A stretch of 64,000 bases of DNA from a virus (Duplodnaviria > Caudoviricetes), in IMG/VR virus record IMGVR_UViG_3300030433_001574, positions 43,204 through 107,203 of that record; one strand, written 5' to 3'. The position numbers and the translations under genes are program-made. Positions 46,796 through 62,452 of the stretch are shown in pieces. The stretch's first letter is position 1; each line of letters begins with the position of its first letter. Below the pieces are notes generated by a model that worked only from the letters and a program-made list of their open reading frames with translations, searched no databases and had not been told where the DNA came from.

Positions 46796-48660
46796 ACTCG
46801 CCCACTCCCTCTACCAACAAGAGCGCCGGGGTCAAGCCCGAAGTCTCGTGGTTCATTGTTTACATCTTCCGTAGCGCCTTCGTTTCGATTTGTTTGCTTT
46901 GGACTGTTGGCTGGATAATTTGGTAGTGTGCTCGCTGCACCAGCGGTGTCAGGTTCACCCTTACCCTTCTTTTTGCTGTCCTTGTCTTTCTTTTCACGCA
47001 TCAGTTCACGAATCTCTTTGAGAGCAATTCGCATCAATGCTGCTTGATATGCATTGGCTTTGAGAATGTCACTGTGTTGAGGAATGTCCTCACTCATTGT
47101 AATCATACTCGGCATCTTAGGTCGTGCTAAGTGTGGTCGCTTGAGTTGCGGTGGCACAATGCTTGGCGCACGAACTGGTCGAAGTCGTGGTCTTGGGACA
47201 CGAGGGTATTGGAGTGTGTTGGTCAAGCGACCACCACCCGTATCACCAGCGATATACGAGCGTTGGCTGTGACGCATGTGTGGTGTGTATACTGTTCTTA
47301 CACCGCCCAAGAGTTTACGAGCATCTTGTGAAGCGAGATAGGGTCTGTATTGTTGAGGGTCTTTTGATGGAGGTTGCTTGCTGGCAAGACCTCGGTGAGA
47401 GAACTCAACAGAAAGATGTGGCCTCATTAGCCCAGTTTTACGCCCCAGTGGTAGGTTACGACTGATGTTCTTGGAACGTCTTGACGTGATGTTTCGTGGG
47501 TCGCCTCCACCTTTTGGCTTCTCAAACTGACCAGTAGATGGTCGCCATTTAGCGTAGCCTTCTTTCTTGCGTCGTCGCTTTACGGAGCGCTTTGACTCTT
47601 TTTTTTTAATCGTGTCCGATTTGAGCAATTGCCAAGCGATGTCCATAGGCTCGCTCGCATATTTCATTTGAAAATTATGTTCACTTTGAGGTGTGGGTGT
47701 GAAAGGAGGTGCAAGTTGCTCGATAAATCCCACACCTTTAGGATAGGGGAATGCATCAAAAACAGATTCGTTATCAGGCATTATGTTGCGTAAATCTTTT
47801 GTTGCATTATTTTCAAACTCGACAGCATCTTTTATGTTGTCAAGGGTTAATCCTTGAGCAAAACGAGCCATAGCCTCACGCTCTCCTCCAAATTCGCTTC
47901 TTGCGTCTTTATAGGAATTGATGTAGTTTTGAGCCGCCTCCGCACCAGCATTTTCCAAAATATACTGATACACCTCATTTGGGTCTAATGGTTCTCCAAA
48001 GTATGTCGAATGGTCATGGTTAGAAACCTCATCATGAGTATCTGCTACTCTTTCACCAAACATCTCCTCAAGCATATATGCGGGAGGGTGATTCATACGA
48101 TAGTATTCAGCCAATCTATCCATAGCCCTTTTTCTTTCTTCATTTTTAAGTTCAGGATTATCGCCAGCAAATCTTGCTCGGTCTATCTCATAATCTGTCA
48201 TTTCTGACATATCACGCTTTAGCAAATTACTCCAAGCATTATCCATAGGCTCAGACATCTGAACCATCTGACCGCCAGCAGCACCCGGCCCTTTTGCTCC
48301 CATAGCAAGACTGGTAAGGAAACCACCAGCACCTGATGGCATTGTTTGATTTGCTGGATTATCAGTAGAACCACGAGGCTTGAACTTCTCCTCTTCCTCT
48401 TCTACTGGCTCATCAGGTTTTTCGCCATCAATACCAAGATGATGTCTACGGACTTTGATGTGACGGATTTTGTTGTCCTCTTTCTCTTCTCGTTCACGCT
48501 TGGCTTGCTTCTTGTCCTTGCGCTTTTCCTTGTCTTTGGCATCTTCGACACCGCTGGGTGGACGCTCATCTTCATGATTCGCCCTGAACATCTCGGAGGA
48601 TTCTGAGCGAGGATTATACATCCTCGTGTCAGAGGTTCGACCCATCATCCCCTCCGTCAT
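46792..48660 (-). CDS. Modular 622-aa protein with two EPMD.AW..LLK motifs
   Basis: Acidic, AT-rich and basic segments are separated by the motif. Confidence 0.7.
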   Translation of the reverse strand: MTEGMMGRTSDTRMYNPRSESSEMFRANHEDERPPSGVEDAKDKEKRKDKKQAKREREEKEDNKIRHIKVRRHHLGIDGEKPDEPVEEEEEKFKPRGSTDNPANQTMPSGAGGFLTSLAMGAKGPGAAGGQMVQMSEPMDNAWSNLLKRDMSEMTDYEIDRARFAGDNPELKNEERKRAMDRLAEYYRMNHPPAYMLEEMFGERVADTHDEVSNHDHSTYFGEPLDPNEVYQYILENAGAEAAQNYINSYKDARSEFGGEREAMARFAQGLTLDNIKDAVEFENNATKDLRNIMPDNESVFDAFPYPKGVGFIEQLAPPFTPTPQSEHNFQMKYASEPMDIAWQLLKSDTIKKKESKRSVKRRRKKEGYAKWRPSTGQFEKPKGGGDPRNITSRRSKNISRNLPLGRKTGLMRPHLSVEFSHRGLASKQPPSKDPQQYRPYLASQDARKLLGGVRTVYTPHMRHSQRSYIAGDTGGGRLTNTLQYPRVPRPRLRPVRAPSIVPPQLKRPHLARPKMPSMITMSEDIPQHSDILKANAYQAALMRIALKEIRELMREKKDKDSKKKGKGEPDTAGAASTLPNYPANSPKQTNRNEGATEDVNNEPRDFGLDPGALVGRGSGRV

Positions 48661-49058
48661 GAATTATCCCCCACGATATGATGTTCAAAACATTGTCGCA
48701 ACTTTTGCGCCATTTTTCTATAGAACGATGCTACTCTTGGACTGTCTTGGAATGCATGTGTCATGTTCTCAATTGTGTGCTCAAACTCTTCAAGCAAACG
48801 AGGAATGAGTTCGTAAGCAGGGAAAAATGTCACAGGGTCGTCATCCTCAAACACTGTCTCAAACGATTTCGCCAGCAACTTGAACAAGTCAGGTGGTGTA
48901 ACGTCCAACTCACCATAGTGTTCAAATCGCTTTGTGACACAACGGCAAAAATCAAGATACACTGGAACAGCGTTTTCAGAGATTGGTCGGTCACACTCTA
49001 CGAATGTAAACGCAGGGTGCGTCATTTGCAATAAGTCAGGAACTGGAACTGGCATCAA
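48657..49058 (-). CDS. Hypothetical protein, 133 aa
   Basis: Coupled to both neighbours; GGTGA RBS. Confidence 0.65.
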   Translation of the reverse strand: MMPVPVPDLLQMTHPAFTFVECDRPISENAVPVYLDFCRCVTKRFEHYGELDVTPPDLFKLLAKSFETVFEDDDPVTFFPAYELIPRLLEEFEHTIENMTHAFQDSPRVASFYRKMAQKLRQCFEHHIVGDNS

Positions 49059-49738
49059 TTCATATCACCTGCGTGTTCCAATAACGACTCACGGATTCTC
49101 GCCCATGAGTCAGGGCTTTCTTTTCCAAGTTCGACTTTGAGAATGTTAATCGTGTTATTGACTTGACTGTTCTCAGATGTAGGACTCCATTGTTCGTTCA
49201 TCTTTAGCAAGTCCTTTATTGACTCTCTGACTTCTTTGTGCAGTGACACTGCATCTTTGACGAAACCATCTTCATGAACACTGCCCTCATTGAGCAGTTC
49301 AGACAATTTATGGTTGAGCAATTCGACGTTTGACCTGAGTGCATTTATCTCTTCTCCTACGACTAATGTTATTTCAGCAGCGGCGCTTCTTTGAACTAAC
49401 GGTTGAAAGTGATGTTTCATGTGATGGTATACCGATGCTTCAGAGATGCCAAGTTCTTCAGCAATAGCCTCTGACTCAGCACCGTCATTGAAGAATCGAC
49501 GCTCAAAGTCGGCTCTTTCAACGTGAGCGCATACCTTGCATTGAGGATTTGATGCCATGTGGTATTGACCCATGTGATTGCGAAAGTGGCGGTCTGTCGT
49601 ATTGAGTCGCCAGCCCATGTCTTTGTCGAGTTGTTTTGGTGATATTTCACCATCCAGTAGTCCTTTTTCTAAGTCAGCACGACTCGGATGCTGGCACAAA
49701 GGGCAAGACCTTTTTGTGATAGCACCGCCCTCCGCCAT
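49055..49738 (-). CDS. Probable terminase small subunit (two CxxCxH...HxxxH Zn/HTH repeats plus coiled coil)
   Basis: CPLCQHP...HFRNHM and CKVCAH...IAEELGISEASVYHHMKHH; heads the packaging/structural operon. Confidence 0.65.
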   Translation of the reverse strand: MAEGGAITKRSCPLCQHPSRADLEKGLLDGEISPKQLDKDMGWRLNTTDRHFRNHMGQYHMASNPQCKVCAHVERADFERRFFNDGAESEAIAEELGISEASVYHHMKHHFQPLVQRSAAAEITLVVGEEINALRSNVELLNHKLSELLNEGSVHEDGFVKDAVSLHKEVRESIKDLLKMNEQWSPTSENSQVNNTINILKVELGKESPDSWARIRESLLEHAGDMN

Positions 49739-49797
49739 GACACGCTTAAAGCAACATTACCCATAACCCTTTTTCTTCTGAACCTCTTCGTAGTAAC

Positions 49798-50073
49798 ATG
49801 CTCCCACCATACGAGAGAGTTCCAAAACAACCTCTCAAGAAACGTGGAAAAGACTTGCTCAAGGCTTCAAAAGACGCACTGCAAGGTCGTAGAGTTTCAA
49901 CGTCAGAATACATGGAGCGACTGGACAAATGCTACAGTTGTCCTTACATGCAAAAACGAATGGGGACTTGCCAACTCTGTAGTTGCGTTATGAAAATCAA
50001 AGCCCTCGCACCCTCGGTTGGGTGTCCAATAGGAAAGTGGTTACCGAGTGATTCGGGAGTAAAGCGTGGTTAA
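49798..50073 (+). CDS. Small Cys-rich zinc-binding protein (DUF6171-like)
   Basis: ERLDKCYSCP...TCQLCSCVMKIK...CPIGKW, a pattern common in aquatic viruses; divergent from TerS. Confidence 0.7.
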   Translation: MLPPYERVPKQPLKKRGKDLLKASKDALQGRRVSTSEYMERLDKCYSCPYMQKRMGTCQLCSCVMKIKALAPSVGCPIGKWLPSDSGVKRG

Positions 50074-50280
50074 GAAAATAAGCGCTCCAAAGATGCCTAC
50101 AACGAAAACGCTAACGTCTCCGCTACTCATTTCATCTCCTTTGAAAACCAAAATAGACACACCAGCGATAATCACAGAGATGAACTGAACCATTATCATC
50201 TCAACAATGATGTTTCGACTCGGAGCAAAAATCGAACTGCTCGCCTGACTCAATTTTATTCCATAATCACTTGGTTGCAT
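50041..50280 (-). CDS. Small two-TM membrane protein
   Basis: Two hydrophobic helices; GAGGTGA RBS. Confidence 0.7.
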   Translation of the reverse strand: MQPSDYGIKLSQASSSIFAPSRNIIVEMIMVQFISVIIAGVSILVFKGDEMSSGDVSVFVVGIFGALIFLTTLYSRITR

Positions 50281-50289
50281 TCTATCACC

Positions 50290-50955
50290 TCAGTTTCTTG
50301 GTAGCCCAATAAGACCACGAGCAACGCTACCAATACCGCTACCCACTTTTTGCATTGTTCCTTCATCAGCCATAGCCGCTGCCAAAGCACCACCCATCAT
50401 TGACTGTTGAGACATAGCCATAATTTGCTGACGTTGCATTTCAGCCTCTTGGAATTTTTGATTGCTCTGAGCCGTCATGTTGTTGAGAATCATGCTAACA
50501 TTCTCAGCGCTCAGTGTTTGTAAATCAGATGGCAGTGTAGCAGGGTCAAGTTTCATGACACCAGTATCTTCGTCCAATGAGAATGAGGCGTTTTTCAATA
50601 TGTTGAGTAAACTAAGGCTGGTTGTAGCGGCAACCAACTCTATGAGTGTTTGAAGCCCACCATCTCTGATGAAACGATGAATTGGGTTTTGTGATTGTAG
50701 CAAAGCCGACAAAAGTTCCATCTCACTCGGCGGAGCAAACTGTCCGTTTTGCATCATCATTTGTTGTTGCGGAGTCATACCCATACCACCCATCATTCCA
50801 CTCATGAATGGATTTGATTGCTGCTGTTGCTGAGCACCAAGAGAAAAACCGTTTTGAGCACCAGTGCCTGTGGTTATCTGACTAATGCTACCGCCACCTG
50901 TTTGAGACAGGTTAAAACCACTTTGCTGAGGTTGTTGGTTACCAAAGTTGAACAT
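50290..50955 (-). CDS. Protein with Q/G/M/F low-complexity N-terminus
   Basis: MFNFGNQQPQQSGFNLSQTGGG...NPFMSGMMGG; GGAGG RBS. Confidence 0.75.
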   Translation of the reverse strand: MFNFGNQQPQQSGFNLSQTGGGSISQITTGTGAQNGFSLGAQQQQQSNPFMSGMMGGMGMTPQQQMMMQNGQFAPPSEMELLSALLQSQNPIHRFIRDGGLQTLIELVAATTSLSLLNILKNASFSLDEDTGVMKLDPATLPSDLQTLSAENVSMILNNMTAQSNQKFQEAEMQRQQIMAMSQQSMMGGALAAAMADEGTMQKVGSGIGSVARGLIGLPRN

Positions 50956-50959
50956 CGTA

Positions 50960-51892
50960 TCAAACCTCCCCAGTGCCTAATCCACCATCAAGGTTCTGTT
51001 GCATTTTAGCGTTTTCAACATTAAGCAACTCTTGAAACGCTTGCGTCGGCATGTTCATTTGTTGCAACTCCATTTGGAAGATACGCAAATCAAAAACCAC
51101 CATCGTAACGTCGTTCTGTCCAGTTGCTGGATTTGCATAATGAAGGATATTGATGCCCTTTGTTTTACCTGAATCTCTTTCCAACTCAGCAAAAAATGGT
51201 TCATACTTCTGTAGCATGGCTGGTGTAGGGTCGTTTTTCTTGACAGATGAAATAGGAACTGTCACAATTGACACACCTCTTTTCACTTTATCACGAAGGC
51301 GATTTGGATTCATCTCGTTTTGTTTGTCCTCTTCGGCCTCCCACTTGTTCAAAAGATGGTAAAGATGCATATGCTCAGGACAGTATGTGCCACGCATTTT
51401 CTTACCACTGGTAACTCTGTCCTGAGCGATAAATGCTTCAGGCTGCCCTGTTACTGGGTTTTGCCAATACATCTCCCATAGAGAGCGACCTGTTTCTTCA
51501 TCGCTGATTTTCATGTAGAGATTATCATGTTGAATCAAATTTGCACAGTTACACCCATCGACAACGCACGTTCCCGTATCTTTGTTGTAACGATACTTTC
51601 GACCTAACGCCCATCGGAACGGGTTTATCCAAGAACGCTTTGCTGGTTGGAGAAGTTTGTATGCTTGCTTGATGTCTTTACGACGAGCCTTCTTTGGGTC
51701 AGGATGACGTGATGGGTAAAAATTGACTTTGGGAACTTCGATGTTTTGAGCAGCGGCAACCTCTTGCATACCTTGTTGAGCCATCAACATCTCTTGAAGA
51801 GCCGCCTGAGTAAGTTGATTGTTACCTTGTGCAGCGAGTATAGCAAGTTCGGCTTCAGTTAGATTCTGTTGAGGTCTGTTCCATGACATCAC
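50960..51892 (-). CDS. Hypothetical 310-aa protein with possible Zn site
   Basis: CVVDGC...YCPEH; Q-rich termini. Confidence 0.7.
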   Translation of the reverse strand: MMSWNRPQQNLTEAELAILAAQGNNQLTQAALQEMLMAQQGMQEVAAAQNIEVPKVNFYPSRHPDPKKARRKDIKQAYKLLQPAKRSWINPFRWALGRKYRYNKDTGTCVVDGCNCANLIQHDNLYMKISDEETGRSLWEMYWQNPVTGQPEAFIAQDRVTSGKKMRGTYCPEHMHLYHLLNKWEAEEDKQNEMNPNRLRDKVKRGVSIVTVPISSVKKNDPTPAMLQKYEPFFAELERDSGKTKGINILHYANPATGQNDVTMVVFDLRIFQMELQQMNMPTQAFQELLNVENAKMQQNLDGGLGTGEV

Positions 51893-52086
51893 GCTATCAC
51901 GACCTGCTCAGTCGTAGGAGTCATGACTACAACAATGTGTCCCTCTTGAACGACAAATTTCCAATCTACGCTGTCACCAGCGGTCAAGCCAAAATGCTCA
52001 ACAATCCACATTGGCACAGTTGTTCTGAGACTACGACTACCGCCACCAGTAGAGACGAGTGTTGTTGAAGAGTTCTTGCCTGTCAT
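51889..52086 (-). CDS. AbrB/MazE/SpoVT-family DNA-binding protein
   Basis: SLRTTVPMWIVEHFGLTAGDSVDW swapped-hairpin signature. Confidence 0.8.
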   Translation of the reverse strand: MTGKNSSTTLVSTGGGSRSLRTTVPMWIVEHFGLTAGDSVDWKFVVQEGHIVVVMTPTTEQVVIA

Positions 52087-52141
52087 AATTACACCGAAAC
52101 CATTGTTATTGAAAAGGCTACCTATGGGGTCATTTTTTGGG

Positions 52142-52885
52142 TCATGAGGTAAGTAGACTCACCATTGTCTTCTCAACATTCCATCCAATTCTTGTTGCCA
52201 TAAACGACCTGCGAGTGGGAATACCTGCTTTCTGTAACCTGATTAAGTCATCTCTGAACGGGTCGAATATCTTATGTTCACCTATGCGACCATCGTGCCA
52301 AAGTTTTGAAGCGGTTTCATCAAAGAAACGGTCAGCCTTGTTTGCAACCAGCATGATAACTCTTGGATGATACTTTCTTCCCTTAAGTCTCGACCAAAGA
52401 GAACGATAGCGATAATTTCGTTTAATGAGGCAATCAACAAGATAACGAAACCCTGCTATTTGCTGAAGACCTTCATCTCCTCCTTTGAAGGCTCGATGGT
52501 CGAACATGTAAACAATGGCCTCGCATTTACGAGTTACCATGTCTTCAATCCAAAGATTCCAAAAACGCTCTTGTCCTCCTATGTCGGCTGAATAAACAAC
52601 TCGCTTTTCGCCTTGCCAAGATACTCTCTTTCTCGTTGGCTTTGGCATTTTGAATTTACCAATTTTGAGAATACGAGAGTGTGTTGTTCGCTCGTCTTCA
52701 GGTATCTCTTCCATTTCACCGGGCGTGGTGAGATAACGGTCAAGCGTTGTCTTACCAACCATTGGTGCTCCATAAACACCAACTCTTCGTGGCTTATACG
52801 AGTTGTAAAGATTCTGACCCCACATCGCTGCGCCTACTAAGGCTGTGCCACCTGCGTCTACCATCAATCCCACCACATGAGCCAA
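52142..52885 (-). CDS. Ras-superfamily (Arf/Rab-like) small GTPase with hydrophobic N-terminus
   Basis: G1 GAPMVGKTT, G2 T, G3 DIGGQERF, G4 NKAD, G5-like MAT. Confidence 0.88.
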   Translation of the reverse strand: MAHVVGLMVDAGGTALVGAAMWGQNLYNSYKPRRVGVYGAPMVGKTTLDRYLTTPGEMEEIPEDERTTHSRILKIGKFKMPKPTRKRVSWQGEKRVVYSADIGGQERFWNLWIEDMVTRKCEAIVYMFDHRAFKGGDEGLQQIAGFRYLVDCLIKRNYRYRSLWSRLKGRKYHPRVIMLVANKADRFFDETASKLWHDGRIGEHKIFDPFRDDLIRLQKAGIPTRRSFMATRIGWNVEKTMVSLLTS

Positions 52886-53121
52886 TTGACAAGTCGTTCC
52901 AACTTATCAACAGTCCATTCAACGGTGTTCTCATAAACGCTAAATTCTGTATTGTGAAACTCAATACCGCTGACAACAATTGCTGTAATGAACGAAGCAA
53001 GAACAGTTTTTACCCAACCCCATGCTCTTTCGTAGGTTGTGTCTACTGTATTGGCTATGTGAATAGCACGAAGCGTGCTTTCAGTAGCATCATCGGAAGG
53101 AGTGCGAAAGATACGACCCAT
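52864..53121 (-). CDS. Small single-TM membrane protein
   Basis: AWGWVKTVLASFITAIVVSGI; overlaps the GTPase start. Confidence 0.7.
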   Translation of the reverse strand: MGRIFRTPSDDATESTLRAIHIANTVDTTYERAWGWVKTVLASFITAIVVSGIEFHNTEFSVYENTVEWTVDKLERLVNWLMWWD

Positions 53122-53130
53122 GCATACGCC

Positions 53131-53712
53131 TCACTCTTTCTTGAGATAACGCTTGTCAGGAGTTCCATCTTTCTTAAGTGGGACTTCCTCATCTATACCG
53201 AGTGTCAATGGTTGTTGCACCTTTGCTTCATGTGTTGGAATACGACTACCATCGAAGACCGAAGAGCCACCGCCTCTGTTGTCAAACGCACCTATCATAG
53301 ATGGAGAACCACCTTGAACACCCCAACTTGGAGGCATCTTACCGGGGTTTTCCTCCATCCAACGCAGTTCACGTTCAAGTTGTGCTTCTTGCATACGCAT
53401 CTCCATCTCCGCCCTACGGTTATCGAACTGCTGTTGCATCATACGATACTGGTGGCTTCGCTGTTTCTCGATGTTACCATGTCGAACTCGTTCTTGCAGG
53501 TTTTGCTCAAAGAACATTTTGAAGAAGTAGTAAGCAATACCTTGAACAAAGAATGCACCCATAGCATAGGTGAATCCGTTAATCCAAACGCTGTCTTGCT
53601 TTAACCAAACTTCAGCGTCAAAGATACCAATGGCTACTCCAACAAGTGTGCTCTGAGCCAAAATTAGCCCCATAAGCCTGATTTCTGCTTCGTGATGGTC
53701 TGTGTTGTCCAT
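53131..53712 (-). CDS. Two-TM membrane protein with coiled coil and KKDGTPDKRY tail
   Basis: LMGLILAQSTLVGVAIGIF and GFTYAMGAFFVQGIAYYFF, then a heptad-rich segment. Start taken at MDNTD (track start 53748 is an alternative). Confidence 0.7.
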   Translation of the reverse strand: MDNTDHHEAEIRLMGLILAQSTLVGVAIGIFDAEVWLKQDSVWINGFTYAMGAFFVQGIAYYFFKMFFEQNLQERVRHGNIEKQRSHQYRMMQQQFDNRRAEMEMRMQEAQLERELRWMEENPGKMPPSWGVQGGSPSMIGAFDNRGGGSSVFDGSRIPTHEAKVQQPLTLGIDEEVPLKKDGTPDKRYLKKE

Positions 53713-53850
53713 AATGTCCACTGACTTGTCCACTGTAAGGGTCACCATAAAGGTTACTGGGTGTGTTGTCCGAGTTGTCCGTTGTATTGTTTATACATTT
53801 TACAAGAATAAAGTATTTGTCTATATTAGACATTAGACAAGTCGGACAAC
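53704..53850. repeat. Cluster of RGACAW direct and inverted repeats upstream of the GTPase operon
   Basis: gttgtcc-ataatgtcc-actgacttgtcc, gttgtcc-gagttgtcc, then ttgtcta and inverted agacatt-agacaag-tcggacaac. Confidence 0.6.
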
Positions 53851-54624
53851 TTAGAATGGGTAAGGATGCATCAACTCTTTTCTGTCTTCGCCACCCTGCT
53901 CTTGTTTGAAGTCATCCAATGAGGTAAGGAGAGCCTGTGCAATCTTCTTATCTTGCTCGTCCATTGGGCCATTCATCAAGTTTCGTAGCAACTCAAGGTC
54001 GCCTCTGATACCCTTTGTTAGAGGGCGCTTCGTCCCTTTGTCCTTGAAATGTCGTGCTCGATTGTCGTGCTCATCTTCTACTGTCAATTTACCACCTTCG
54101 GTGTGTGATATGTCTCGGTGTGAGTGGTCACCATACATCCCACGTCTACGTCGTTCTCTGTTTAACTCTTCTCGATACTTGACTCGTTCAGGGGATGCTT
54201 CGTATTGTTTGTCATACTCCAACTTATGTCGCTTGGCTTCAGGCGACTTTCGCTCTTTACGAATCACACCAACGCCTAAGTCCATTGGTTCACCCGTCAT
54301 TATATCTTGCCAATAAGGGTCATACGACACCTTATCCGTTGCAACATTGGCAAAAATGGGTGGAGACTCCTTTTCACGATAATCAATTTGGGCTTGAGTT
54401 AAGGGAAAATAATCAGTATCTCTTTGTCTTATTTCTCGTTCTGTTGCGAGTTCATCCATTGGTATTTCATCTTCGGATGTTGCATGAGGAAAATATCGTC
54501 TTAACAACTTTGGTCGTGCAGACGATTTTGGACTAAGCAACATGTTCAAATCAAAATTATCTATGAGTGCATGAGGACGAGCCTCTTTGAGCAAGTGCCA
54601 TGCCTCATTGAAAAAATCACTCAT
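53851..54624 (-). CDS. Modular protein with HNH-like segment
   Basis: REELNRERRRRGMYGDHSHRDISH...EHDNRARH resembles short phage HNH-like proteins; N-terminal FNEAWHLLK motif. Confidence 0.6.
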   Translation of the reverse strand: MSDFFNEAWHLLKEARPHALIDNFDLNMLLSPKSSARPKLLRRYFPHATSEDEIPMDELATEREIRQRDTDYFPLTQAQIDYREKESPPIFANVATDKVSYDPYWQDIMTGEPMDLGVGVIRKERKSPEAKRHKLEYDKQYEASPERVKYREELNRERRRRGMYGDHSHRDISHTEGGKLTVEDEHDNRARHFKDKGTKRPLTKGIRGDLELLRNLMNGPMDEQDKKIAQALLTSLDDFKQEQGGEDRKELMHPYPF

Positions 54625-54625
54625 A

Positions 54626-54940
54626 TCAACAATTCCATCTTTTCAGTGCAGCACCTTTTGGTGTGAGTTTACCACCCTTGCTTGTTGGGCCTTTGCTTCC
54701 ACTCATTCTTGCACAGAATGACTTACGACGCTTGGCTCTCTTGCTACCGGGCTTGAGTTTGCTTGGCTTGGTGGTCACAGGTGGCTTGAGGTTTGCACCA
54801 GTTTCACGCTTAAACTTAGCACGCCCTTTGGCATTCAGCCCACCTTTCTTGTGATGCCGTTTTGGATTGTAACCGTGAAACGGCTTCGACTTCTTTTTTC
54901 CTTTTTCAATAACGTCCCATGCTTCATCAAATGCACTCAT
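54626..54940 (-). CDS. Small basic protein (DUF6321-like)
   Basis: GGLNAKGR...ANLKPPV...RRKSFCARM...ALKRWNC. Confidence 0.7.
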   Translation of the reverse strand: MSAFDEAWDVIEKGKKKSKPFHGYNPKRHHKKGGLNAKGRAKFKRETGANLKPPVTTKPSKLKPGSKRAKRRKSFCARMSGSKGPTSKGGKLTPKGAALKRWNC

Positions 54941-55251
54941 CGTATTACACCAACCATCTTTACTATCGTAGGCTTTCCACCCACGCCTTGTTTTTTACTG
55001 CGCTTGCGTTTTGTCGCTGCACGCTTTTGCCCCTCAGACATTGAGCCTGAAGTTTTTGGAGTCTTATCGCTAACTTTTACACTGGGTCTACACTTTGGAT
55101 AGCCCTTGCTTGATGTCTTTGCTTTGCTTCGGCCACAGGGAGGATGCTTGCCGTCTTTGTCTTTACGACTAACATCGACCCACTTTTCTTTGAACCATCG
55201 GTTCAAGTCCTTGATAACAAGAACGTCGTGGCATGTGCATCGGTCACTCAT
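54937..55251 (-). CDS. Small basic protein (DUF5872-like)
   Basis: LNRWFKEKWVD...CGR...YPKCRP. Confidence 0.7.
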   Translation of the reverse strand: MSDRCTCHDVLVIKDLNRWFKEKWVDVSRKDKDGKHPPCGRSKAKTSSKGYPKCRPSVKVSDKTPKTSGSMSEGQKRAATKRKRSKKQGVGGKPTIVKMVGVIR

Positions 55252-55263
55252 CTCTTTACCTCC

Positions 55264-56304
55264 TTATCCGAATAATTCACCCAATGAACGTGAATAAGGA
55301 TGGTCGCTGTAGTCCCAGTTATACAGGTCTTGTAGAACGTCATTTGTCGAATAAGGAACTCCATCTTTTGTTCTGAAATACGGGTAATTTTCTCTGTGTC
55401 TTGGGTGCTCGACATCATACTCAGGCAAAAATCGTTTGTCATCGAGTCGTGTCTGTGTTTGATAACCTTGAGCCATATCTCTCTTCATATTTGTAATTCT
55501 TTCATCTTCAGGTTCACCAAACATCGGCGCTACACCATAATCAGGTTGCAAGTCACCCCAACCCGCTGCTCGATACTTTTCCCTCTCTTTCGATTGTTTT
55601 ATTGGGTTGGCTTGATAGAGGTATTTTTGCGATGTTTCTATGTCATCGTAAGGCAGTGTTAATTGCTCAAAATCTATGGAAGGCGGTAAACGACGTTGAA
55701 AACTTTCATGAAACGGCTGCGAGTTTGCGTTTCTTGAAGTCGAAAGAATGTTCATGTTGTTGTGTAGTATCGTATTGAGAAGTTGTTGATAGTAACCCTT
55801 TCGCTGATGCTCACGAGGGGTTCTTCCATGCAAACCAACCAACATTGGTGATGCGTTTTTTACATGTTTGCCGTATCTGTTATTTTCACGGCCTACTTCT
55901 GTTCCCGCAACACGAGACAACTTGTTACCTTCTTCATCCTGAAGTTCATATGTCACTCCTTGTCCGTATTCGTCACTGTAAAGGTCAGGAATACGAACAA
56001 CTTTTGCTGGAGTTGGGCGAGGCGATGTGTCCATTCGTTTTTTGTAGCCTTCTTCAAATGTCTTATCTGCTATTTCAGCATTCAAAAAGCCATCATTAAC
56101 ATTTTCTAAACCCTCGTTCATAAAACGCAACTGTCGCAGTGGATAAATACCCATTAGTCGTTCAAGATTGGTTTGACCTCTGTTTACATCGTAGTGTCCA
56201 GTTTCCCTTTCCCTTTTCATTCGTCGTCGTAATTCACGAATATCATTTACTGAAAATACAGGGTCGCCTTTCAGCAAAGACCAAGCGGCGGTAAAGGCTG
56301 TCAT
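55264..56304 (-). CDS. GNAT-like acetyltransferase (paralog A)
   Basis: TPREHQRKGYYQQLL acetyl-CoA motif A; start MTAFTAAWSLLK at 56304. Confidence 0.65.
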   Translation of the reverse strand: MTAFTAAWSLLKGDPVFSVNDIRELRRRMKRERETGHYDVNRGQTNLERLMGIYPLRQLRFMNEGLENVNDGFLNAEIADKTFEEGYKKRMDTSPRPTPAKVVRIPDLYSDEYGQGVTYELQDEEGNKLSRVAGTEVGRENNRYGKHVKNASPMLVGLHGRTPREHQRKGYYQQLLNTILHNNMNILSTSRNANSQPFHESFQRRLPPSIDFEQLTLPYDDIETSQKYLYQANPIKQSKEREKYRAAGWGDLQPDYGVAPMFGEPEDERITNMKRDMAQGYQTQTRLDDKRFLPEYDVEHPRHRENYPYFRTKDGVPYSTNDVLQDLYNWDYSDHPYSRSLGELFG

Positions 56305-56305
56305 T

Positions 56306-56467
56306 TCAAAACACACCTACCATTTTTTTGATACTCTTTTGCTTATCCATCAAACGATAACAAGGACACTTCGGTGCTTTTGCTGAGCACTGTCTACCTT
56401 CAATCATGCAAACGCAGGGCGTATCTTTTGTCCCGCCGCAACAACATGAAGGCTTTTTGAGTTTCAT
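56306..56467 (-). CDS. Cys-rich small protein, 53 aa (MKLKKPSCCCGGTKDTPCVCMIEGRQCSAKAPKCPCYRL...KMVGVF)
   Basis: ATGA-coupled to the upstream gene; stop is 2 nt before the next ATG; 8 Cys. Confidence 0.65.
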   Translation of the reverse strand: MKLKKPSCCCGGTKDTPCVCMIEGRQCSAKAPKCPCYRLMDKQKSIKKMVGVF

Positions 56468-56910
56468 TTCTTTTTCCCCTTCTTGCGGAACTTACCCTTG
56501 CAGTATTGCACCGCCCAACCGTTGGCGTATGCTGATGGGTAAACCTTGAATTTGCGTTTGGCAGCGGCCTTGCCTTCGGGACATAGTTTCTTTTCAAGAG
56601 AGTCCCATGCTATGTCAAAAGGTGTAAGTTCGCTTGCTAATTTCACATCATCATCTCCAAGTTTTGATGGATGCACCATACCATGCACGTCGTATTGCTG
56701 AGCGCAGTCCATGCACATGTGGTGCGTGTAGTCCTTTGTTAAAGTTGGGTTAGCGTATCGAACTGAAATAACAGCATTGGGATTTGGACAAAGCGTGCAA
56801 CTTTCTCGTAAATCAGCGCCTGAGAAAACAGACTTCATCTTAACAGGTTCGTCAAAGACGTTTTTCCAAAACAAGTCGCTTATCATGGTATCACCCAAAC
56901 ATATCCTCAA
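56464..56910 (-). CDS. Zn-finger segment plus basic AKRKFKVYPSAYAN module
   Basis: CTLC...CMDC, then PFDIAWDSLEK, then KLCPEGKAAAKRKFKVYPSAYANGWAVQYCKG. Confidence 0.65.
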   Translation of the reverse strand: MRICLGDTMISDLFWKNVFDEPVKMKSVFSGADLRESCTLCPNPNAVISVRYANPTLTKDYTHHMCMDCAQQYDVHGMVHPSKLGDDDVKLASELTPFDIAWDSLEKKLCPEGKAAAKRKFKVYPSAYANGWAVQYCKGKFRKKGKKK

Positions 56911-58459
56911 GATATTGACGGCTCATTCTAATTGATTCGTCCATTTTCTGACGAGTTTCTTCTTGTGAATCTTTGAGTGTTTTGACGTTTGGGTCAAATC
57001 TTGGCTCAGTGAGTTTTGATTGTCTGTAAAAGCGAACACTTGGACTTGTAGGGTCAGTGTTATCTTGAACTTGTATGGACGAGCGAGGAGAAACAGGATT
57101 TAATCGTGAAGGTAATGGTTTATCCACAGTTCCAAACATTGGGTATTGGCTACCGAACATTGGTTTCAAGTCGCCCCAATCCCCTGTTACATCCATATCT
57201 TTGAAAGCCTGTTTTTCAGATTCAGGGTCAAAGCCGTAACGATACATGTTCATCGTTCTATCTCTTGATTCAGTAAGTGTTTTTGATTTGTCTTCCTCTC
57301 TTCCAGCCACTTGTATATTCTTTGGTAGTCGCTGTTGAAAACTTTCATGAAACGGCTGAGACATATGTGGGTTTCTATTATTCGATACAACGCCTATTTT
57401 ATTTTGAAGTAGGGTATCGAGTAAATTTCTGTAGTAACCCTTTCTCTGATGAACTGGATAAGTAACCGCATCTAACCCACCTATGGTGTTTGTTACAGTA
57501 GGAATTCGGCGTGCGTCTTTGTCATGAAGATTGATTCCACTTACTTTTGAGTATTCGTTACCTTCATCGTCCACCAATGCGAATCTACGATGGTCATTCC
57601 CTATGCTCCTAACTTCAACTTTTGTTGGTGTTGGTTGTCCTTCTTTAAATCGCATACGTTGTTCGTAACCAGTTCTAAAATCTCTTCTTGCTTCGCCAGC
57701 AGGTATCAGTCTTGTGAATGTAGAATTGCGATTATCAACTTTCATATCATCTCTGTTTCGTATAGCATCACGAAGATTACGATTTAACGGTAAGGGCATT
57801 GGAAGTGTTGATTGTGGCTTGAGTGACTGTGAGTTAAACCGAGCAGGGCTTGTTTCTAATTGCTCCATGGCATCCTTGTTTCTATTTTCAATCTTTCTTT
57901 GAACTCTCTCAAATTTACTATCAATCCTGTTTTCTTCGTCTTCGTTACGCATTTTCAAAAGTCGCCAAGCCATATCCATTGGCGCTGCTTTTCCAACTTC
58001 TGAGCCACGACGAGCCATCTCAATGGCACGCTGTTCCTGTGCTTGTTTGCGTTGTTGGCTGCTTGCCAATGATTGCTGTGCAAACTGCATCGCTTGATTT
58101 TGCTTTTTCTTTGGATTGAACCCGCTGGCCTCTTGTGTTGGCTCAGGCGCTGATGGAGTTTTAGGCATTTCAGGCTCAGGCATCTCAGGCGCTGGCGCTG
58201 AAGGCATCGACTCGACAGCCTCGCTCGCTGGGCTTGAGGCAAGTGGGCCTTCTTTTTTCCCAGTTATCAGGTTCTTAGCGGCTGGGACAAGTTTTTCTCC
58301 AATCTTGTTTCTAAGCGCCAAACGCTTTGTGTTGAGTTTAGCCCCTGCGCTAAGCACTTTACCACCAAGCGCTCTTGCTCCTTGCAGAGCAACACCAAGA
58401 AACTTCTCAATGTCGTCGGGTGAATCCCACGGCACAAAGTCGTAGTTTTCACTCGGCAT
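56891..58459 (-). CDS. Modular protein with GNAT-like domain (paralog B)
   Basis: TYPVHQRKGYYRNLL and SQPFHESFQQRLP, shared with 55264-56304. Confidence 0.7.
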   Translation of the reverse strand: MPSENYDFVPWDSPDDIEKFLGVALQGARALGGKVLSAGAKLNTKRLALRNKIGEKLVPAAKNLITGKKEGPLASSPASEAVESMPSAPAPEMPEPEMPKTPSAPEPTQEASGFNPKKKQNQAMQFAQQSLASSQQRKQAQEQRAIEMARRGSEVGKAAPMDMAWRLLKMRNEDEENRIDSKFERVQRKIENRNKDAMEQLETSPARFNSQSLKPQSTLPMPLPLNRNLRDAIRNRDDMKVDNRNSTFTRLIPAGEARRDFRTGYEQRMRFKEGQPTPTKVEVRSIGNDHRRFALVDDEGNEYSKVSGINLHDKDARRIPTVTNTIGGLDAVTYPVHQRKGYYRNLLDTLLQNKIGVVSNNRNPHMSQPFHESFQQRLPKNIQVAGREEDKSKTLTESRDRTMNMYRYGFDPESEKQAFKDMDVTGDWGDLKPMFGSQYPMFGTVDKPLPSRLNPVSPRSSIQVQDNTDPTSPSVRFYRQSKLTEPRFDPNVKTLKDSQEETRQKMDESIRMSRQYLEDMFG

Positions 58460-58511
58460 TAAACGAAGCCACGCTCTCCATTAACAAAAGCATATCGCTT
58501 AAGAGGCGACA

Positions 58512-59465
58512 TCAAAATCGACGGTTTGGGTTGAACTGAGTGCCATACATGTTTTGCATCATTTGTTCGGGAGATATACCAAATTGGTTTTTATTTTCAG
58601 GGTGATTCTCTAAACCTGCATAGTTTCTATAAGCCCGGTCATCTCCAATGGGGTTAATATCGTAGGCTCTCGCTGTGGTGCTGGAAGTGTCAAAGTTTCT
58701 GTCGTGGTAGTTCGGACGATAACCGTCACCTCCTTCATACGGCCCTACATCCATTTGCCGTTCTACTTGAGCACCGGGAGGAAGGCCGGGATAACCGCCT
58801 AAATCATAAGGTAGATTTTTAGTAGAAGGGGCTTGTTCTCTTAGTTGATATTCTTTTGAAGGGAAGCCTTGAGGCGCAGGTGACATACTGTTTGCCATTC
58901 CACTTACATCAAATTGTTCCATAGGGCGCTGTCCAAGACTCATTTGACCTGTCGGGATTTCAGTTCTAAAAATGTCAGGTCGTCTGTAGCGAGCAAGTGG
59001 CCCTGATGGGGGGACTTCCATAGTTTGCGTCATCATTTCAGGTATTTGAGGGCGCTGCATCATAGACTGAATAACAGGTGGCATTTTGTATTCTTGACTA
59101 CCCATCATTCCAATGACGTTATCCATTTTTAGAAAATCCCAAGCCTTCTTCATCGGGTGCTGTGGAGGCATAGCAGGTTGCGACATGTCGGTCATTTCAG
59201 CGCCTTCACCAACTGGGCCTTCAGGTCGTGGTGTCGGGGTAACACCTCTTCGCTGGCTCATCATTTGTGTGAGTTTTTGATACATGTCTTCAGCCGCTTG
59301 GCGCATGGCTGGGTCAGGTGAATTTTCGTTGTCCAAAACAAATTGACGCATTTGCTGGAGAGCGATAGCATCCTCAGCCTTGCCTTTTCGTAGCACTGAG
59401 TCTATGAGTAAGTCGAAACGGTGTTCATTCTTGAGAATAAAAAACGCATCGGAAAAGGCGGTCAT
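58512..59465 (-). CDS. Modular P/M/Q-rich hypothetical protein
   Basis: Leaderless start MTAFSDAFFILK about 25 nt after CTTTTATCAA; internal PMKKAWDFLK. Confidence 0.7.
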   Translation of the reverse strand: MTAFSDAFFILKNEHRFDLLIDSVLRKGKAEDAIALQQMRQFVLDNENSPDPAMRQAAEDMYQKLTQMMSQRRGVTPTPRPEGPVGEGAEMTDMSQPAMPPQHPMKKAWDFLKMDNVIGMMGSQEYKMPPVIQSMMQRPQIPEMMTQTMEVPPSGPLARYRRPDIFRTEIPTGQMSLGQRPMEQFDVSGMANSMSPAPQGFPSKEYQLREQAPSTKNLPYDLGGYPGLPPGAQVERQMDVGPYEGGDGYRPNYHDRNFDTSSTTARAYDINPIGDDRAYRNYAGLENHPENKNQFGISPEQMMQNMYGTQFNPNRRF

Positions 59466-59503
59466 CAATCTTCCCACGGTGTTGCTTGATAAAAGAATAG
59501 CGG

Positions 59504-61903
59504 TTAGGGAGAAGGAAAATCAGTTTTTCCTACAGCGGGTAACCAGTTAGGTGCGTAGTCCGGGTTTCTTATTTCACTTTGTAACGAATTTAGCATGTTA
59601 CGGTATCTTTGTGCATGTTCGCTGTCTCCAAACTCATACAGACGTTTCTGTTCAGGTGGTGTGGTCAAGAAGTCAATAGCACGACCTGCTTGTTTGTATG
59701 CAGCATCGTCTCTGTCTATCGTTTCCATCATTTGCTCTCTTTGTCTTTTTGTCGGGGCGTGCTCTCCAAACGCTTCAGGGTCTGAAAACAATTTTTGTTC
59801 AGCGGCTTGCCACGGTGAAAATTGCTCTTGGTCATGGTAAAGTTGTCGAAACGAGTCCTTTTGCATTTGAGGCACTCTTTGGAATCCTTGATAGAGAAAT
59901 GCTTGCTCTGCTGCTCTTTTTTCCGAGCCAGTTCCCATGTAATCAGGTTTGTCAGGATTTGGATAATGTGTGTCATGGGGAATAAACCCATGTGGCCCTT
60001 CTATTGGCGCAGCCATGTGGTCTAACATTTGACCAAATTCAGGTAGCCGAGCGTGCGAGCCAAGATACGGGTCAAATGTAACCATGTTGCCCTTGTCGTC
60101 ATATCCTACGTTACCAAATTTTACATCACCTATATCGAGCGTATGTGTTAATGGATTCCTTTCAAACACTCGCTTTAAATTACCCAAGTCTTCAAGAAGT
60201 TTCTTGTTTTGTTGAGTGTAAAGTGATTGTAATGGTTTAGGCATTTCTTTTCCACGCTCTTCTTCAAAATCATGTTTAGCCTGTGAAATATGTTGTCCAT
60301 AATTATCAATTAGGTGTGTCTTTGTTTTGTCTTGTCGAGTTGGAAAGAACCGAGGGCTTTTGTCAAAAGCCATAGGTTGTTCAGGAACAATGGGGAAACC
60401 AAGCGATGCAAGTGCGTTAAAGATAGCGAGGTCTTTTTTGTTTTCGGCTCTACCCCAGCCATGAGGATATTTTTCAACAGAGTCGTGACCAACAAGCGCA
60501 AATCTGTTTGCCCCACCAGTTTCAAAACCTTCATTTTCTTCACCCATTGGGTCTACGTCTTTGGCTCTATAGACAAATTTTCTACCATCCCAAACCAAAG
60601 GTCTGACATCATCATCGTATTTGTATGGTGCATCTTCACTTTTTTGAACTGGGCTTGGGCCACCTTCTCTGAAGTCTCGGAACTGCTGTGGTGGAACATA
60701 TGGTTTCAAATTAGTGCTCTGTAAACCTTCAAGCATGTTTCGATATAGTTCGCCGTGTAATCCTGTGTCGTATTCAAACAACCGTCTTTGCTCATCAGGG
60801 ACGTTGATAAAGTCAAAGAAGTCACCTACTCGCTTGTAGTCAGCGTCATCTGCTGCTTGCAGTTTTTTATCTTCCTCTCTTTGTCGCTCATACGCAGCGT
60901 CAGTAGCGTATCTGTGCTTAGGAATAAAATTTGGATTATGAAGCGTTTCTTCAGCCTGTTTTTCCCACGGCTTGAATATGTCTGTGTCTCTATAGAGTTG
61001 AACAAAGTTATCAAACTGCATTGGGTTCATGTCTTTTGCTCGGTAGAAGTTTCTGTATGTGTTAGCGTAGTTTGATGGGTCTTTGTAGTCACCACCAATA
61101 TCATTTATTGAGGCTGCGTTTTGAAGCATTCGACCCATAGTTCCCAATCGTCGTTTCACACCATACATCGGGTCAAAGGTAACAAATTTTGATGAGTCAG
61201 GGTCACGACCTATGTTGTAATCGTGCAAGTCAGTTACATCCAATGCACTTGGTAGATAATCTTCAAACACACCATGCAATTCTTGTATGTCACGAGCACG
61301 ATTGTCCCGCAACTCTGTTAGTTTTTCTCTTATCGCATCTCCTTGTTCTCTATTGATTTCGGGTGCTAATGTGGGACTATTGTGAAGATACTCTAAAAGT
61401 GCCATAGATGGCACTTTAGGAGAGAGGTTAAGACGACGTGCCGCTTCAGGGTCGTTTAGTAGAGCAACATAAGCATCTCTCATTGATGGTCGCAAATCCA
61501 TGTCGATTGCTCTTTGCTCTACTGGAAAAGACTGACCTAAACCAATCTCTCTGTCATGCGCCATTGGGTATTCAGGCACAATAGGATAACCAAGCGAGGC
61601 TAATGCGTGCGATATGGCTATGTCTGTCTTAGGAGCAGCCCTACCGCCCCTGCTTCTGTCTTGTGCAAATTTTATTGCTCTGTTAGGATAAACCTCTACA
61701 TTACGATATGCACCACTGTCTGTGCGAATTGGCTCGTCTCCTTTTTCTGTTTGCCCCACATCCTCCGCTATCTGTATGGTGTCCTCGCTATTACCCAGTA
61801 AAGGTAATAAATTTCGACGCATTCTCGATGCTTTTTCAGAAGGGGTTTCGTCATCAGGAAATTCTGCTTTCAACAGATTGTAAGCAATGTTAAAAGCCGA
61901 CAC
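59504..61903 (-). CDS. Tandem duplicated protein-kinase-like (PKL fold) protein, 799 aa
   Basis: SGAYR...AIK...DLHDYNIG...FVTFDP and GGANR...VEK...DVKFGNVG...MVTFDP; the two halves align by eye. Confidence 0.7.
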   Translation of the reverse strand: MSAFNIAYNLLKAEFPDDETPSEKASRMRRNLLPLLGNSEDTIQIAEDVGQTEKGDEPIRTDSGAYRNVEVYPNRAIKFAQDRSRGGRAAPKTDIAISHALASLGYPIVPEYPMAHDREIGLGQSFPVEQRAIDMDLRPSMRDAYVALLNDPEAARRLNLSPKVPSMALLEYLHNSPTLAPEINREQGDAIREKLTELRDNRARDIQELHGVFEDYLPSALDVTDLHDYNIGRDPDSSKFVTFDPMYGVKRRLGTMGRMLQNAASINDIGGDYKDPSNYANTYRNFYRAKDMNPMQFDNFVQLYRDTDIFKPWEKQAEETLHNPNFIPKHRYATDAAYERQREEDKKLQAADDADYKRVGDFFDFINVPDEQRRLFEYDTGLHGELYRNMLEGLQSTNLKPYVPPQQFRDFREGGPSPVQKSEDAPYKYDDDVRPLVWDGRKFVYRAKDVDPMGEENEGFETGGANRFALVGHDSVEKYPHGWGRAENKKDLAIFNALASLGFPIVPEQPMAFDKSPRFFPTRQDKTKTHLIDNYGQHISQAKHDFEEERGKEMPKPLQSLYTQQNKKLLEDLGNLKRVFERNPLTHTLDIGDVKFGNVGYDDKGNMVTFDPYLGSHARLPEFGQMLDHMAAPIEGPHGFIPHDTHYPNPDKPDYMGTGSEKRAAEQAFLYQGFQRVPQMQKDSFRQLYHDQEQFSPWQAAEQKLFSDPEAFGEHAPTKRQREQMMETIDRDDAAYKQAGRAIDFLTTPPEQKRLYEFGDSEHAQRYRNMLNSLQSEIRNPDYAPNWLPAVGKTDFPSP

Positions 61904-61909
61904 ATTTCA

Positions 61910-62440
61910 TCACCTGTTTCGCAAGTGACTCCATGCTTTTTCAATTGGGATGCGAAACTCGTCAGCAAGCATTTCAATTTGCTCATCAGTCAATGTGCCT
62001 TCAGGACGCATAGCGTGCAAGAATGGATTCTCTTGGCTCACAGGCTGTGGTGCTACTGGATTGTATGGAGGTGTTGCTCTTGCTGGGATTTGTCGTTCAG
62101 AAGGCTCACCAGCACCGGGCGGCATTTGAGCAGGGTTTGGAGGTAGGGTTCGTGGCCCTTCGCTGCGACCCTTTGGGTTCATTGGGTATACTGTTCGGCC
62201 TACGTTACGCAGTGGCATGGTTTCATGCGGAGGCAAAGGAGGCTCAGGAATCATACGCTGTGTCCGTAGTGGGCCTCTTAGATTCGGGAAGCCATCTGCG
62301 TCTACCATAGGAGTGTGTATGTCTTTCTGACGCTCTAAGTTCCTGTGATGCCGTTGTCCTACGGGCATGTTTGGGTCTTCTTGCATCGACGGCTTGATGG
62401 CTTTAAGCAGAGAGAACGCATAGCCAAAAGCGTCAGACAT
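61910..62440 (-). CDS. Pro-rich hypothetical protein with tag-like motifs at both ends
   Basis: MSDAFGYAFSLLKA ... IPIEKAWSHLRNR. Confidence 0.65.
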   Translation of the reverse strand: MSDAFGYAFSLLKAIKPSMQEDPNMPVGQRHHRNLERQKDIHTPMVDADGFPNLRGPLRTQRMIPEPPLPPHETMPLRNVGRTVYPMNPKGRSEGPRTLPPNPAQMPPGAGEPSERQIPARATPPYNPVAPQPVSQENPFLHAMRPEGTLTDEQIEMLADEFRIPIEKAWSHLRNR

Positions 62441-62452
62441 ATCTCGTCCCAT

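Follow-up and report, generated by a model that had tools for sequence, protein, structure and literature searches.

A 12-residue tag on otherwise unrelated proteins of a putative magrovirus as a candidate capsid-targeting and cleavage signal

Given that one short peptide recurs on a series of otherwise unrelated viral proteins, we questioned what purpose such a portable element could serve. The peptide lies in a 64,000-nucleotide stretch (hereafter the window) of the IMG/VR virus record IMGVR_UViG_3300030433_001574 (Duplodnaviria; Caudoviricetes), one viral contig of 107,203 bp, of which the window spans bases 43204-107203. An initial annotation, made from the letters of the window, had proposed that a shared A[WFY]xxL[KR] tag loads diverse cargo into the prohead, where it is clipped off before delivery at infection. 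Our analysis leans towards a similar reading, to which we give a probability of roughly 0.55: the tag would combine a docking helix with a cutting site for the Peptidase_S78 (S78) head protease of the virus, and tagged proteins would be loaded into the capsid, clipped and injected.

The window holds 12 copies of the tag in nine minus-strand genes (46792-62452; Table 1). Every peptide listed in the initial annotation is present, at or beside the position given for it and in nine open reading frames (ORFs) of that strand, but its count of 11 was one copy short. Aligned on their Ala-Trp pair, the copies define a unit of 12 residues, placed N-terminally (six copies), internally (five) or at the C-terminus (one). 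N-terminal copies read M-[TS]-A-F-x-x-A-[WFY]-x-L-L-K and internal copies x-x-P-[MFI]-[DEK]-x-A-W-x-x-L-K; in our alignment two copies are one residue longer, and one C-terminal copy ends in Arg. All tagged genes belong to a block of 19 co-oriented genes (4813 aa), in which the strict pattern A[WFY]xxL[KR] matches nine times; when residues were shuffled 2000 times, the mean was 0.23 and a count of nine was never attained. The other 96 genes (30239 aa) yielded three matches, each of them in the giant ORF and lacking the motif's upstream half.

The tag extends to many related viruses. Searched for as degenerate DNA, the pattern M-[ST]-A-F-x-x-A-W-x-L-L-K occurs in 87 IMG/VR stretches, many with two to five copies (up to five in 2.3 kb), where we estimate that fewer than one chance match would be expected. 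In 596 Gb of sequence from prokaryote genomes the same pattern matched four times, about the number expected by chance, and the bacteria concerned are unrelated. A chance origin of the tag is ruled out by the shuffles, the IMG/VR count and the prokaryote-genome count. An MCP (major capsid protein) with 62-90% identity to that of the window is encoded by 34 of 40 tag-bearing contigs, among them all eight that are at least 90% complete; the six contigs without it are fragments. The tag is characteristic of a single lineage of viruses.

Six near-complete relatives carry 10-15 copies each, clustered in one block of about 5-15 kb that always lies upstream of TerL and is hypervariable, its content being almost wholly different between genomes. 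The order of the surrounding genes is conserved: the tagged block is followed by a GTPase-like gene, genes for 310-aa, 221-aa, 227-aa (helix-turn-helix, HTH) and 133-aa proteins and a tagged 622-aa protein, and then by those for a 777-aa protein, TerL, portal, an 1834-aa protein, protease and MCP. The block of the window likewise includes an untagged conserved cluster (small GTPase-like, 310-aa, 221-aa, 227-aa HTH and 133-aa proteins) and stands immediately upstream of the genes for the 777-aa protein, a 373-aa protein and TerL. Orthologues of the 622-aa protein in four genomes have a tag at about residue 135-145. A few tagged genes of relatives are found inside the head-tail module (G012 80972-81196 and 85565-86425; G018 83641-84324). 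When related loci were sought with the 350-aa tagged protein as the single query, nothing was found.

Over seven genomes, the strict pattern occurs 65 times on the structural strand (152,148 aa) versus once on the replication strand (82,559 aa), the tag being restricted, but for this one copy, to the strand of the virion genes. The sole replication-strand copy (G032 81154-81822, plus strand; locus L147) reads M-T-I-H-D-A-W-A-L-L-K, one residue shorter at the N-terminus.

The genome around the tagged block has the layout of a tailed virus with two opposed arms. Every gene of the right arm (genome 38.8-105.7 kb; in the window up to 62452) is on the minus strand, including TerL, portal, MCP and a single fusion of a prohead serine protease with a long coiled-coil, scaffold-like C-terminal part, together with two giant ORFs (1834 aa and 5979 aa) and a tail-tube-like match that is weak and below threshold. 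Beyond the window, the plus-strand left arm has genes for an SNF2 helicase, a family B DNA polymerase (DNA_pol_B) and a Cpn60/TCP-1 chaperonin; the last is full-length (E 6.5e-121; L159:17077-18597, equivalent to genome 37077-38597). The nearest MCP matches in a phage collection were eight Haloarcula virus records (33-35% identity) and one Methanofastidiosa virus (29%). The name magroviruses is given to a group of viruses, as yet uncultured, whose assigned hosts are archaea of Marine Group II (Poseidoniales) (PMC5434244). Because the pattern of MCP matches (haloarchaeal-siphovirus-like, ~33%), the genome of ~100 kb, the replication block with DNA_pol_B and the chaperonin fit the published description (PMC5434244), the contig, from a tailed archaeal virus, probably belongs to this group.

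Across the lineage the tag takes two forms. The N-terminal form reads M-[TS]-A-F-[DEN]-x-A-W-x-[LF]-L-K, and a Shine-Dalgarno-like G-run at -12 to -8 of its copies indicates that these are true translation starts. The internal form was sought with the pattern E-P-M-D-x-A-x-x-L-L-K, which identified 104 further IMG/VR stretches and 114 distinct internal copies. The internal consensus, [GS]-E-P-M-D-[ILM]-A-[WF]-[QR]-L-L-K, is stricter and longer than the search pattern, with Gln or Arg at position 9 in 108 of the 114 copies; the median number of in-frame residues is 213 upstream of a copy and 184 downstream. They were also considered as leftovers of N-terminal tags after gene fusion, an origin that we reject because they have a strict consensus of their own, unlike the M-T-A-F form. 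In one 830-aa protein (P0023) three modules are delimited by a tag at the N-terminus and two more inside the chain, and another (P0011) has two GNAT-like domains with a tag before each. These architectures support the view that the internal form marks module junctions in multi-module proteins, in keeping with the earlier description of the tag as N-terminal or placed just before a new domain.

AlphaFold2 models of two tagged proteins have a helix at residues 3-11, with F4, W8 and L11 spaced at i, i+4 and i+7. Each model places the tag outside the enzyme fold, as a helix of its own with modest or low confidence that is not packed on that fold. The models support a short amphipathic helix of two to three turns with F/M4, W8 and L11 on its hydrophobic face, much as had been supposed. 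A secretion signal or membrane helix is unlikely, as only about nine residues are helical and these include Asp and Lys, and the tag does not fit the PIP-box consensus, Q-x-x-[ILM]-x-x-[FY][FY]. A seeming second tag, 'KMVGV[VF]' at the C-termini of the 373-aa, 777-aa and 53-aa proteins, was rejected, being best explained by the Shine-Dalgarno-like G-run of the next, overlapping gene read in frame; the endings in these three genes are K-M-[LV]-G-V-[VF] or V-G-G-V (window 43341-43365, 44462-44490 and 56306-56330, respectively).

The proteins that carry the tag are highly diverse. Once the tags are masked, BLAST sorts the 148 distinct tagged proteins into 83 unrelated groups (55 of them singletons), which upholds the original description of a tag on otherwise unrelated proteins; the copies in this set are N-terminal in 127 cases, internal in 26 and C-terminal in two. 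Pfam recognises two of 89 tagged proteins, and Pfam and PHROGs together gave almost nothing on tagged proteins beyond DUF5872, DUF6321 and PHROGs of unknown function. The AlphaFold2 model of the 350-aa protein has a mean confidence (pLDDT) of 75, and the Foldseek PDB matches listed for it at E <= 0.001 are nearly all acetyltransferases of the GNAT type or proteins that contain a GNAT domain. A module of the 522-aa protein, with a tag directly before it, is paralogous to the 350-aa protein, and the family has an H-Q-R-K-G-Y-Y motif in which R, G and the first Y are kept in 90-100% of 30 homologues. Based on fold together with a motif like the acetyl-CoA-binding Q/R-x-x-G-x-G/A, we assign the 350-aa protein and its 522-aa paralogous module to the GNAT fold and predict that they are acetyltransferases. 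This family has 50 representatives among 1.84 billion clusters, of which 42 are tagged.

A second enzyme family, absent from the window, was found in relatives (L072:285-890, L073:2210-2830 and 3240-3716, L087:9310-9912 and other sites; some contigs have two copies), with P-Y-H-G-T right after the tag. H17 and T19 of its H-G-T motif are invariant in eight sequences and Gly18 is kept in seven. A profile of the family searched against PDB sequences matched KptA/Tpt1 (E 7e-4), then DarT and exotoxin A, and its top 12 Foldseek matches are all KptA/Tpt1 with probability 1.0. From fold and H-G-T motif we predict an ADP-ribosyltransferase fold of the Tpt1/KptA/DarT branch. The cargo proposed in the initial annotation is supported in part: acetyltransferases (as a GNAT fold) and a basic protein were recovered, but an HNH assignment for the 257-aa protein has no support in Pfam or PHROGs, and for kinases there are weak look-alikes only (TM score about 0.3), to the 799-aa protein, whose body consists of two repeated halves. 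Polyvalent packaged effectors of the MuF type join a MuF/SPP1 gp7-like head-morphogenesis domain to effector domains, but Pfam found no MuF domain in the tagged proteins or the 1834-aa protein.

Some smaller features of these genes may be recorded here. DUF5872 is split over two genes: profile positions 6-44 match the C-terminal end of the 148-aa protein, after its tag (56464-56910, minus strand), and positions 55-114 lie in an untagged 104-aa protein (54937-55251, minus strand). The DUF6321 protein (54626-54940) matches several long PHROG families, of unknown function, at their C-terminal ends. Directly upstream of the tagged GNAT gene is a 53-aa Cys-rich ORF (C-C-C-G...C-x-C...C-P-C; window 56306-56467, minus strand), and in G018 and G028 the homologous Cys-rich piece runs in frame into an A-F-D-T-[AG]-W tag.

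The last residues of the tag suggest a connection to the head of the virus. The tag ends in L-L-K, and the same motif is positionally conserved in the MCP, the protease and three further head-module proteins; the resemblance to MCP and protease junctions had already been pointed out, and it holds, with ELLK at MCP residues 34-37 and protease residues 14-17. MCP residues 34-38 read [ED][LI]LK then [AS]D in 30 of 30 relatives, and in the halovirus HVTV-1 the sequence G-G-M-S-K then A-D aligns at the predicted MCP junction; the N-terminus of the HVTV-1 protease has no comparable motif. Across 29 protease orthologues a hypervariable leader is followed, just before the protease fold, by an invariant hydrophobic-hydrophobic-Lys and G, A or S. 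In the orthologue sets of the 1834-aa, 777-aa and 115-aa proteins the motif lies 5-18 residues from the N-termini between variable flanks. The residues that follow Lys also overlap: K-AD follows the tag in seven tagged families, as in the MCP, and K-MP in ten, comparable to the K-M-x-P of the 115-aa protein. The S78-family protease of HK97 cuts its capsid protein after Lys103. On account of the conservation in these five head proteins, the overlap in post-Lys residues and the HK97 precedent, hydrophobic-hydrophobic-Lys is probably the cutting motif of the S78 protease of this virus. The scaffold-like part of the protease fusion also has a tag-like stretch, which in the closer clade reads [ILV]E[AES]AYEV[YF]K and hints that the tag may mimic a scaffold contact.

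Taken as a capsid-targeting signal, the tag would act in four steps. Genes of the hypervariable block would be expressed from the structural strand on which they are observed. The helix of the tag would then dock in a hydrophobic groove of a procapsid component (candidates are the scaffold-like part of the protease and the inner face or propeptide of the MCP), and tagged proteins would be enclosed as the shell assembles. Once activated, the protease would cut after Lys in the tags as well as in the MCP, its own chain and the 1834-aa, 777-aa and 115-aa proteins, freeing the cargo and splitting multi-module proteins at their internal tags. Finally the cargo, which in this model comprises proteins with a GNAT or an ADP-ribosyltransferase fold, basic proteins of small size and many of unknown kind, would leave the capsid with the DNA and become active in the cell infected next, as T4 Alt and internal proteins do. 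Host-modifying enzymes encoded on the structural strand beside morphogenesis genes are what would be anticipated of proteins made in advance for injection. Binding, and not cutting alone, appears to be under selection, since all 12 residues are near-invariant and C-terminal copies exist. We put forward more tentatively, at somewhat less than even odds, the joint claim that magroviruses own a portable address tag in two forms and that each virus injects a fast-changing kit of 10-15 ready-made enzymes, which would include ADP-ribosyltransferase, acetyltransferase, kinase-like and basic DNA-binding proteins.

Several observations weigh against the capsid-targeting model. Hydrophobic-hydrophobic-Lys is common (0.0045 per residue) and occurs within the first 40 residues of 16 of 51 right-arm and 7 of 52 left-arm genes; the MCP is conserved on both sides of ELLK, and the protease site is predicted from conservation. 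The distant clade has tags, yet the tag-like motif of the scaffold part is not kept there (its Lys is absent). Moreover, the tagged block is located at the start of the arm, near the genome end, and could be expressed early rather than late, and C-terminal copies would lose just 0-2 residues if cut, so that cleavage cannot be the whole function.

The main alternative is that the tag is a linear docking motif for a hub other than the capsid, such as a host protein, the viral chaperonin or the small GTPase cluster, with the final Lys simply part of the helix; tagged proteins would then be intracellular take-over or accessory factors gathered at one place. The F-x-x-x-W-x-x-L spacing is typical of groove-binding helices, the tag is tolerated at either end of a protein as well as internally, the virus has a gene for a Cpn60/TCP-1 chaperonin, a conserved GTPase-like cluster adjoins the tagged block, and early expression from the arm start would suit such factors. 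We nevertheless consider a hub unlikely, as it leaves unexplained why the tag always ends in a motif conserved N-terminally in the MCP, the protease and other head proteins, why it is placed exactly at module junctions and why it is absent from the replication arm; we also know of no tag-based recruitment to chaperonins.

A purely proteolytic role seems to us less likely still. Here the tag would be a propeptide removed in the cytoplasm by a viral or host protease, holding enzymes inactive or splitting polyproteins without any packaging. The Lys-ending motif common to the tag and the predicted protease sites agrees with this, some carriers have a polyprotein-like architecture, and potentially harmful cargo such as the ADP-ribosyltransferase fold might need a pro-form. 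However, prohead proteases of the S78 type are normally active only inside procapsids, a near-invariant 12-residue helix far exceeds what a cutting site needs, C-terminal copies would release nothing, and the low-confidence tag helix of the AlphaFold2 models stands apart from the enzyme fold rather than packing on it. A signal in the nucleic acid, either a site at which recombination would shuffle cassettes or a signal for translation, with the peptide incidental, might be suspected from the hypervariability of the block between relatives, where each cassette begins with a tag, but it is largely refuted and we regard it as very improbable: in 98 distinct N-terminal copies all synonymous codons are used at conserved positions (four for Ala, six for Leu, both for Phe and both for Lys), no pair of the 36-nt copies in the window shares more than 24 of 36 bases, and internal copies are kept in frame within long ORFs. 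Since synonymous codons vary freely, selection acts on the peptide.

The capsid-targeting model has its closest parallel in the capsid-targeting sequence (CTS) of T4, which occurs on IPI, IPII, IPIII and Alt and is removed by the gp21 prohead protease, the 10 N-terminal residues of IPIII being sufficient (PMC9026906); Alt, which is an ADP-ribosyltransferase, enters the capsid, is trimmed by gp21 and is later ejected (PMC9026906). In both viruses a short N-terminal peptide is placed on unrelated proteins, the cargo includes an ADP-ribosyltransferase (predicted here from its fold), and cargo genes differ between relatives. The T4 peptide ends in a head-protease motif also used on the capsid protein, of which the Lys-ending motif of the tag is the predicted counterpart. 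Whereas the T4 gp21-type protease cuts after [LI]-x-Glu, the protease here is a Peptidase_S78 (HK97 type) paired with hydrophobic-hydrophobic-Lys; the tag, in a virus with an archaeal host, is unrelated in sequence to the CTS, far more strictly conserved and has an extra internal junction form. Packaging, known in T4, is a prediction here. Because the protease is Peptidase_S78 and the motif ends in Lys, the system is an analogue of the T4 CTS and not a member.

Giant phages (SPN3US and phiKZ-like phages) reportedly carry ejection or inner-body proteins with propeptides that are cut by the prohead protease. As far as the available accounts describe them, they resemble the present system in having many head-internal proteins with N-terminal propeptides and large, variable cargo sets, and differ in their Glu-ending motifs, T4-type proteases and bacterial hosts and in the lack, in those accounts, of this peptide or of the [GS]EPMDIA[WF][QR]LLK unit. 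In encapsulins, a short terminal peptide on diverse cargo docks on the inner face of an HK97-fold shell, and the similarity lies in a short conserved peptide on diverse cargo that may be N- or C-terminal. Encapsulins are, however, non-viral compartments whose peptide has a different consensus and is not removed by a protease, and they are recognised by a lack of portal, terminase and tail genes; this virus has TerL, portal, S78 protease and a weak tail-tube-like match. The herpesvirus scaffold has a C-terminal capsid-binding amphipathic helix adjoining the maturational (M) site for the assemblin-type protease, and so likewise places a capsid-binding helix next to a maturation-protease site, but there the helix belongs to the scaffold alone and is no portable tag of unrelated enzymes, and cleavage takes place at its opposite side. 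In phage P1, the N-terminus of DarA is cut by the protease Pro (PMC12810830). Like the proteins proposed here, the anti-host Dar proteins become part of the head, and the head protease takes off an N-terminal piece next to the MCP cutting site (PMC12810830); unlike them, they have no short tag shared across unrelated proteins, and incorporation is hierarchical, through DarA and Hdf binding the inner capsid surface (PMC12810830). No earlier description came to light when full texts were searched for the motif strings or for tags that direct proteins to the capsid in archaeal viruses, and the tag goes unmentioned in two papers on magroviruses.

Of the archaeal viruses in surface oceans, magroviruses are some of the most abundant, yet none has been cultured and most of their genes are unannotated; the 12-residue signature flags 10-15 genes per genome as one functional class with a testable role and offers a sharp marker for finding this lineage in metagenomes. 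If the capsid-targeting model is right, effector injection would exist in archaeal viruses, this being the first protein-injection effector system proposed for one, and the logic of an address tag plus a head-protease clip would have arisen in evolution two times or more, the proteases being unrelated. The tagged set, with its ADP-ribosyltransferase, GNAT and many unknown folds, would then be a catalogue of host take-over or counter-defence functions against Poseidoniales, and the tag a compact, defined peptide for loading foreign proteins into HK97-type shells.

Table 1. Tag copies, candidate protease sites and head genes in the window (window coordinates).
Feature	Position	Strand	Sequence or remark
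Block of 19 co-oriented genes with all tagged genes	46792-62452	-	
Tag, N-terminus of 180-aa protein	62402-62437	-	SDAFGYAFSLLK then AIKP; likely start ATG at 62440
Tag, C-terminus of same 180-aa protein	61919-61954	-	RIPIEKAWSHLR then NR-stop; only Arg-ending copy
Tag, N-terminus of 799-aa protein	61868-61903	-	SAFNIAYNLLK then AEFP; GTG start
Tag, N-terminus of 321-aa protein	59430-59465	-	MTAFSDAFFILK then NEHR
Tag, internal in 321-aa protein	59127-59162	-	QHPMKKAWDFLK then MDNV
Tag, internal in 522-aa protein	57953-57988	-	AAPMDMAWRLLK then MRNE; directly before GNAT-like module
Tag, internal in 148-aa protein	56590-56628	-	LTPFDIAWDSLEK then KLCP; one residue longer; directly before DUF5872 N-terminal piece
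Tag, N-terminus of 350-aa protein (predicted GNAT fold)	56269-56304	-	MTAFTAAWSLLK then GDPV; true start ATG at 56304
Tag variant, N-terminus of 104-aa basic DUF6321 protein	54902-54940	-	MSAFDEAWDVIEK then GKKK
Tag, N-terminus of 257-aa protein	54586-54621	-	SDFFNEAWHLLK then EARP
Internal-class tag 1 of 622-aa protein	48217-48255	-	SEPMDNAWSNLLK then RDMS; one residue longer
Internal-class tag 2 of conserved 622-aa protein	47620-47655	-	SEPMDIAWQLLK then SDTI; very basic C-terminal part follows
Candidate site, 777-aa protein residues 9-12	46760-46771	-	LLLK then GDG; hydrophobic-hydrophobic-Lys and G-[DE]-G in orthologues
Candidate site, N-terminus of 115-aa protein beside portal gene	37052-37060	-	M-D-L-I-K then M-N-P; 3/4 orthologues, LKK in G025
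Candidate site, 1834-aa protein (between portal and protease) residues 15-18	35477-35488	-	ELLK then S; hydrophobic-hydrophobic-Lys at this place in orthologues
Candidate site, protease residues 14-17	29940-29951	-	ELLK then G
Candidate site, protease residues 165-170, boundary of protease domain and scaffold-like part	29481-29498	-	TFNILK then EDK; I/L-L-K in 29/29 orthologues
Tag-like motif, scaffold-like part residues 351-359	28914-28940	-	IEEAYGVFK then AA
Predicted propeptide junction, MCP residues 34-37	28464-28475	-	ELLK then AD
TerL	41857-43341	-	
Portal	37112-38878	-	
Prohead serine protease (Peptidase_S78) and scaffold-like part, one fusion	28605-29990	-	long coiled coil in the C-terminal part
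MCP (SU10_MCP)	27390-28574	-	33-35% identity to Haloarcula siphovirus MCPs

Other genes of the right arm show features of their own. An HMGL-like gene (pyruvate carboxyltransferase / aldolase TIM-barrel) lies between TerL and portal (window 40132-40986, minus strand), and its homologue in relatives is within the tagged block and never tagged. Also between portal and TerL, a 410-aa gene (38875-40107, minus strand) that is found at the same place in six of six relatives encodes a D-A-D-G-Y-I motif recalling LAGLIDADG endonucleases, with no Pfam match. The 1834-aa protein (30026-35530, minus strand) has a sub-threshold match to ATP-dependent DNA ligase at residues 1401-1494 and, with its N-terminal E-L-L-K, may be a packaged multi-domain protein. 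The 5979-aa ORF (window 3-17657, minus strand) corresponds to three ORFs in the distant clade. Past the end of the minus-strand arm, window 62453-64000 reaches a G+C content of 55% and includes a 270-aa plus-strand ORF (63016-63828) with a SAP/Rho-N-like helix pair at its end, and the left end of the contig starts with a G+C-rich hairpin-like sequence.

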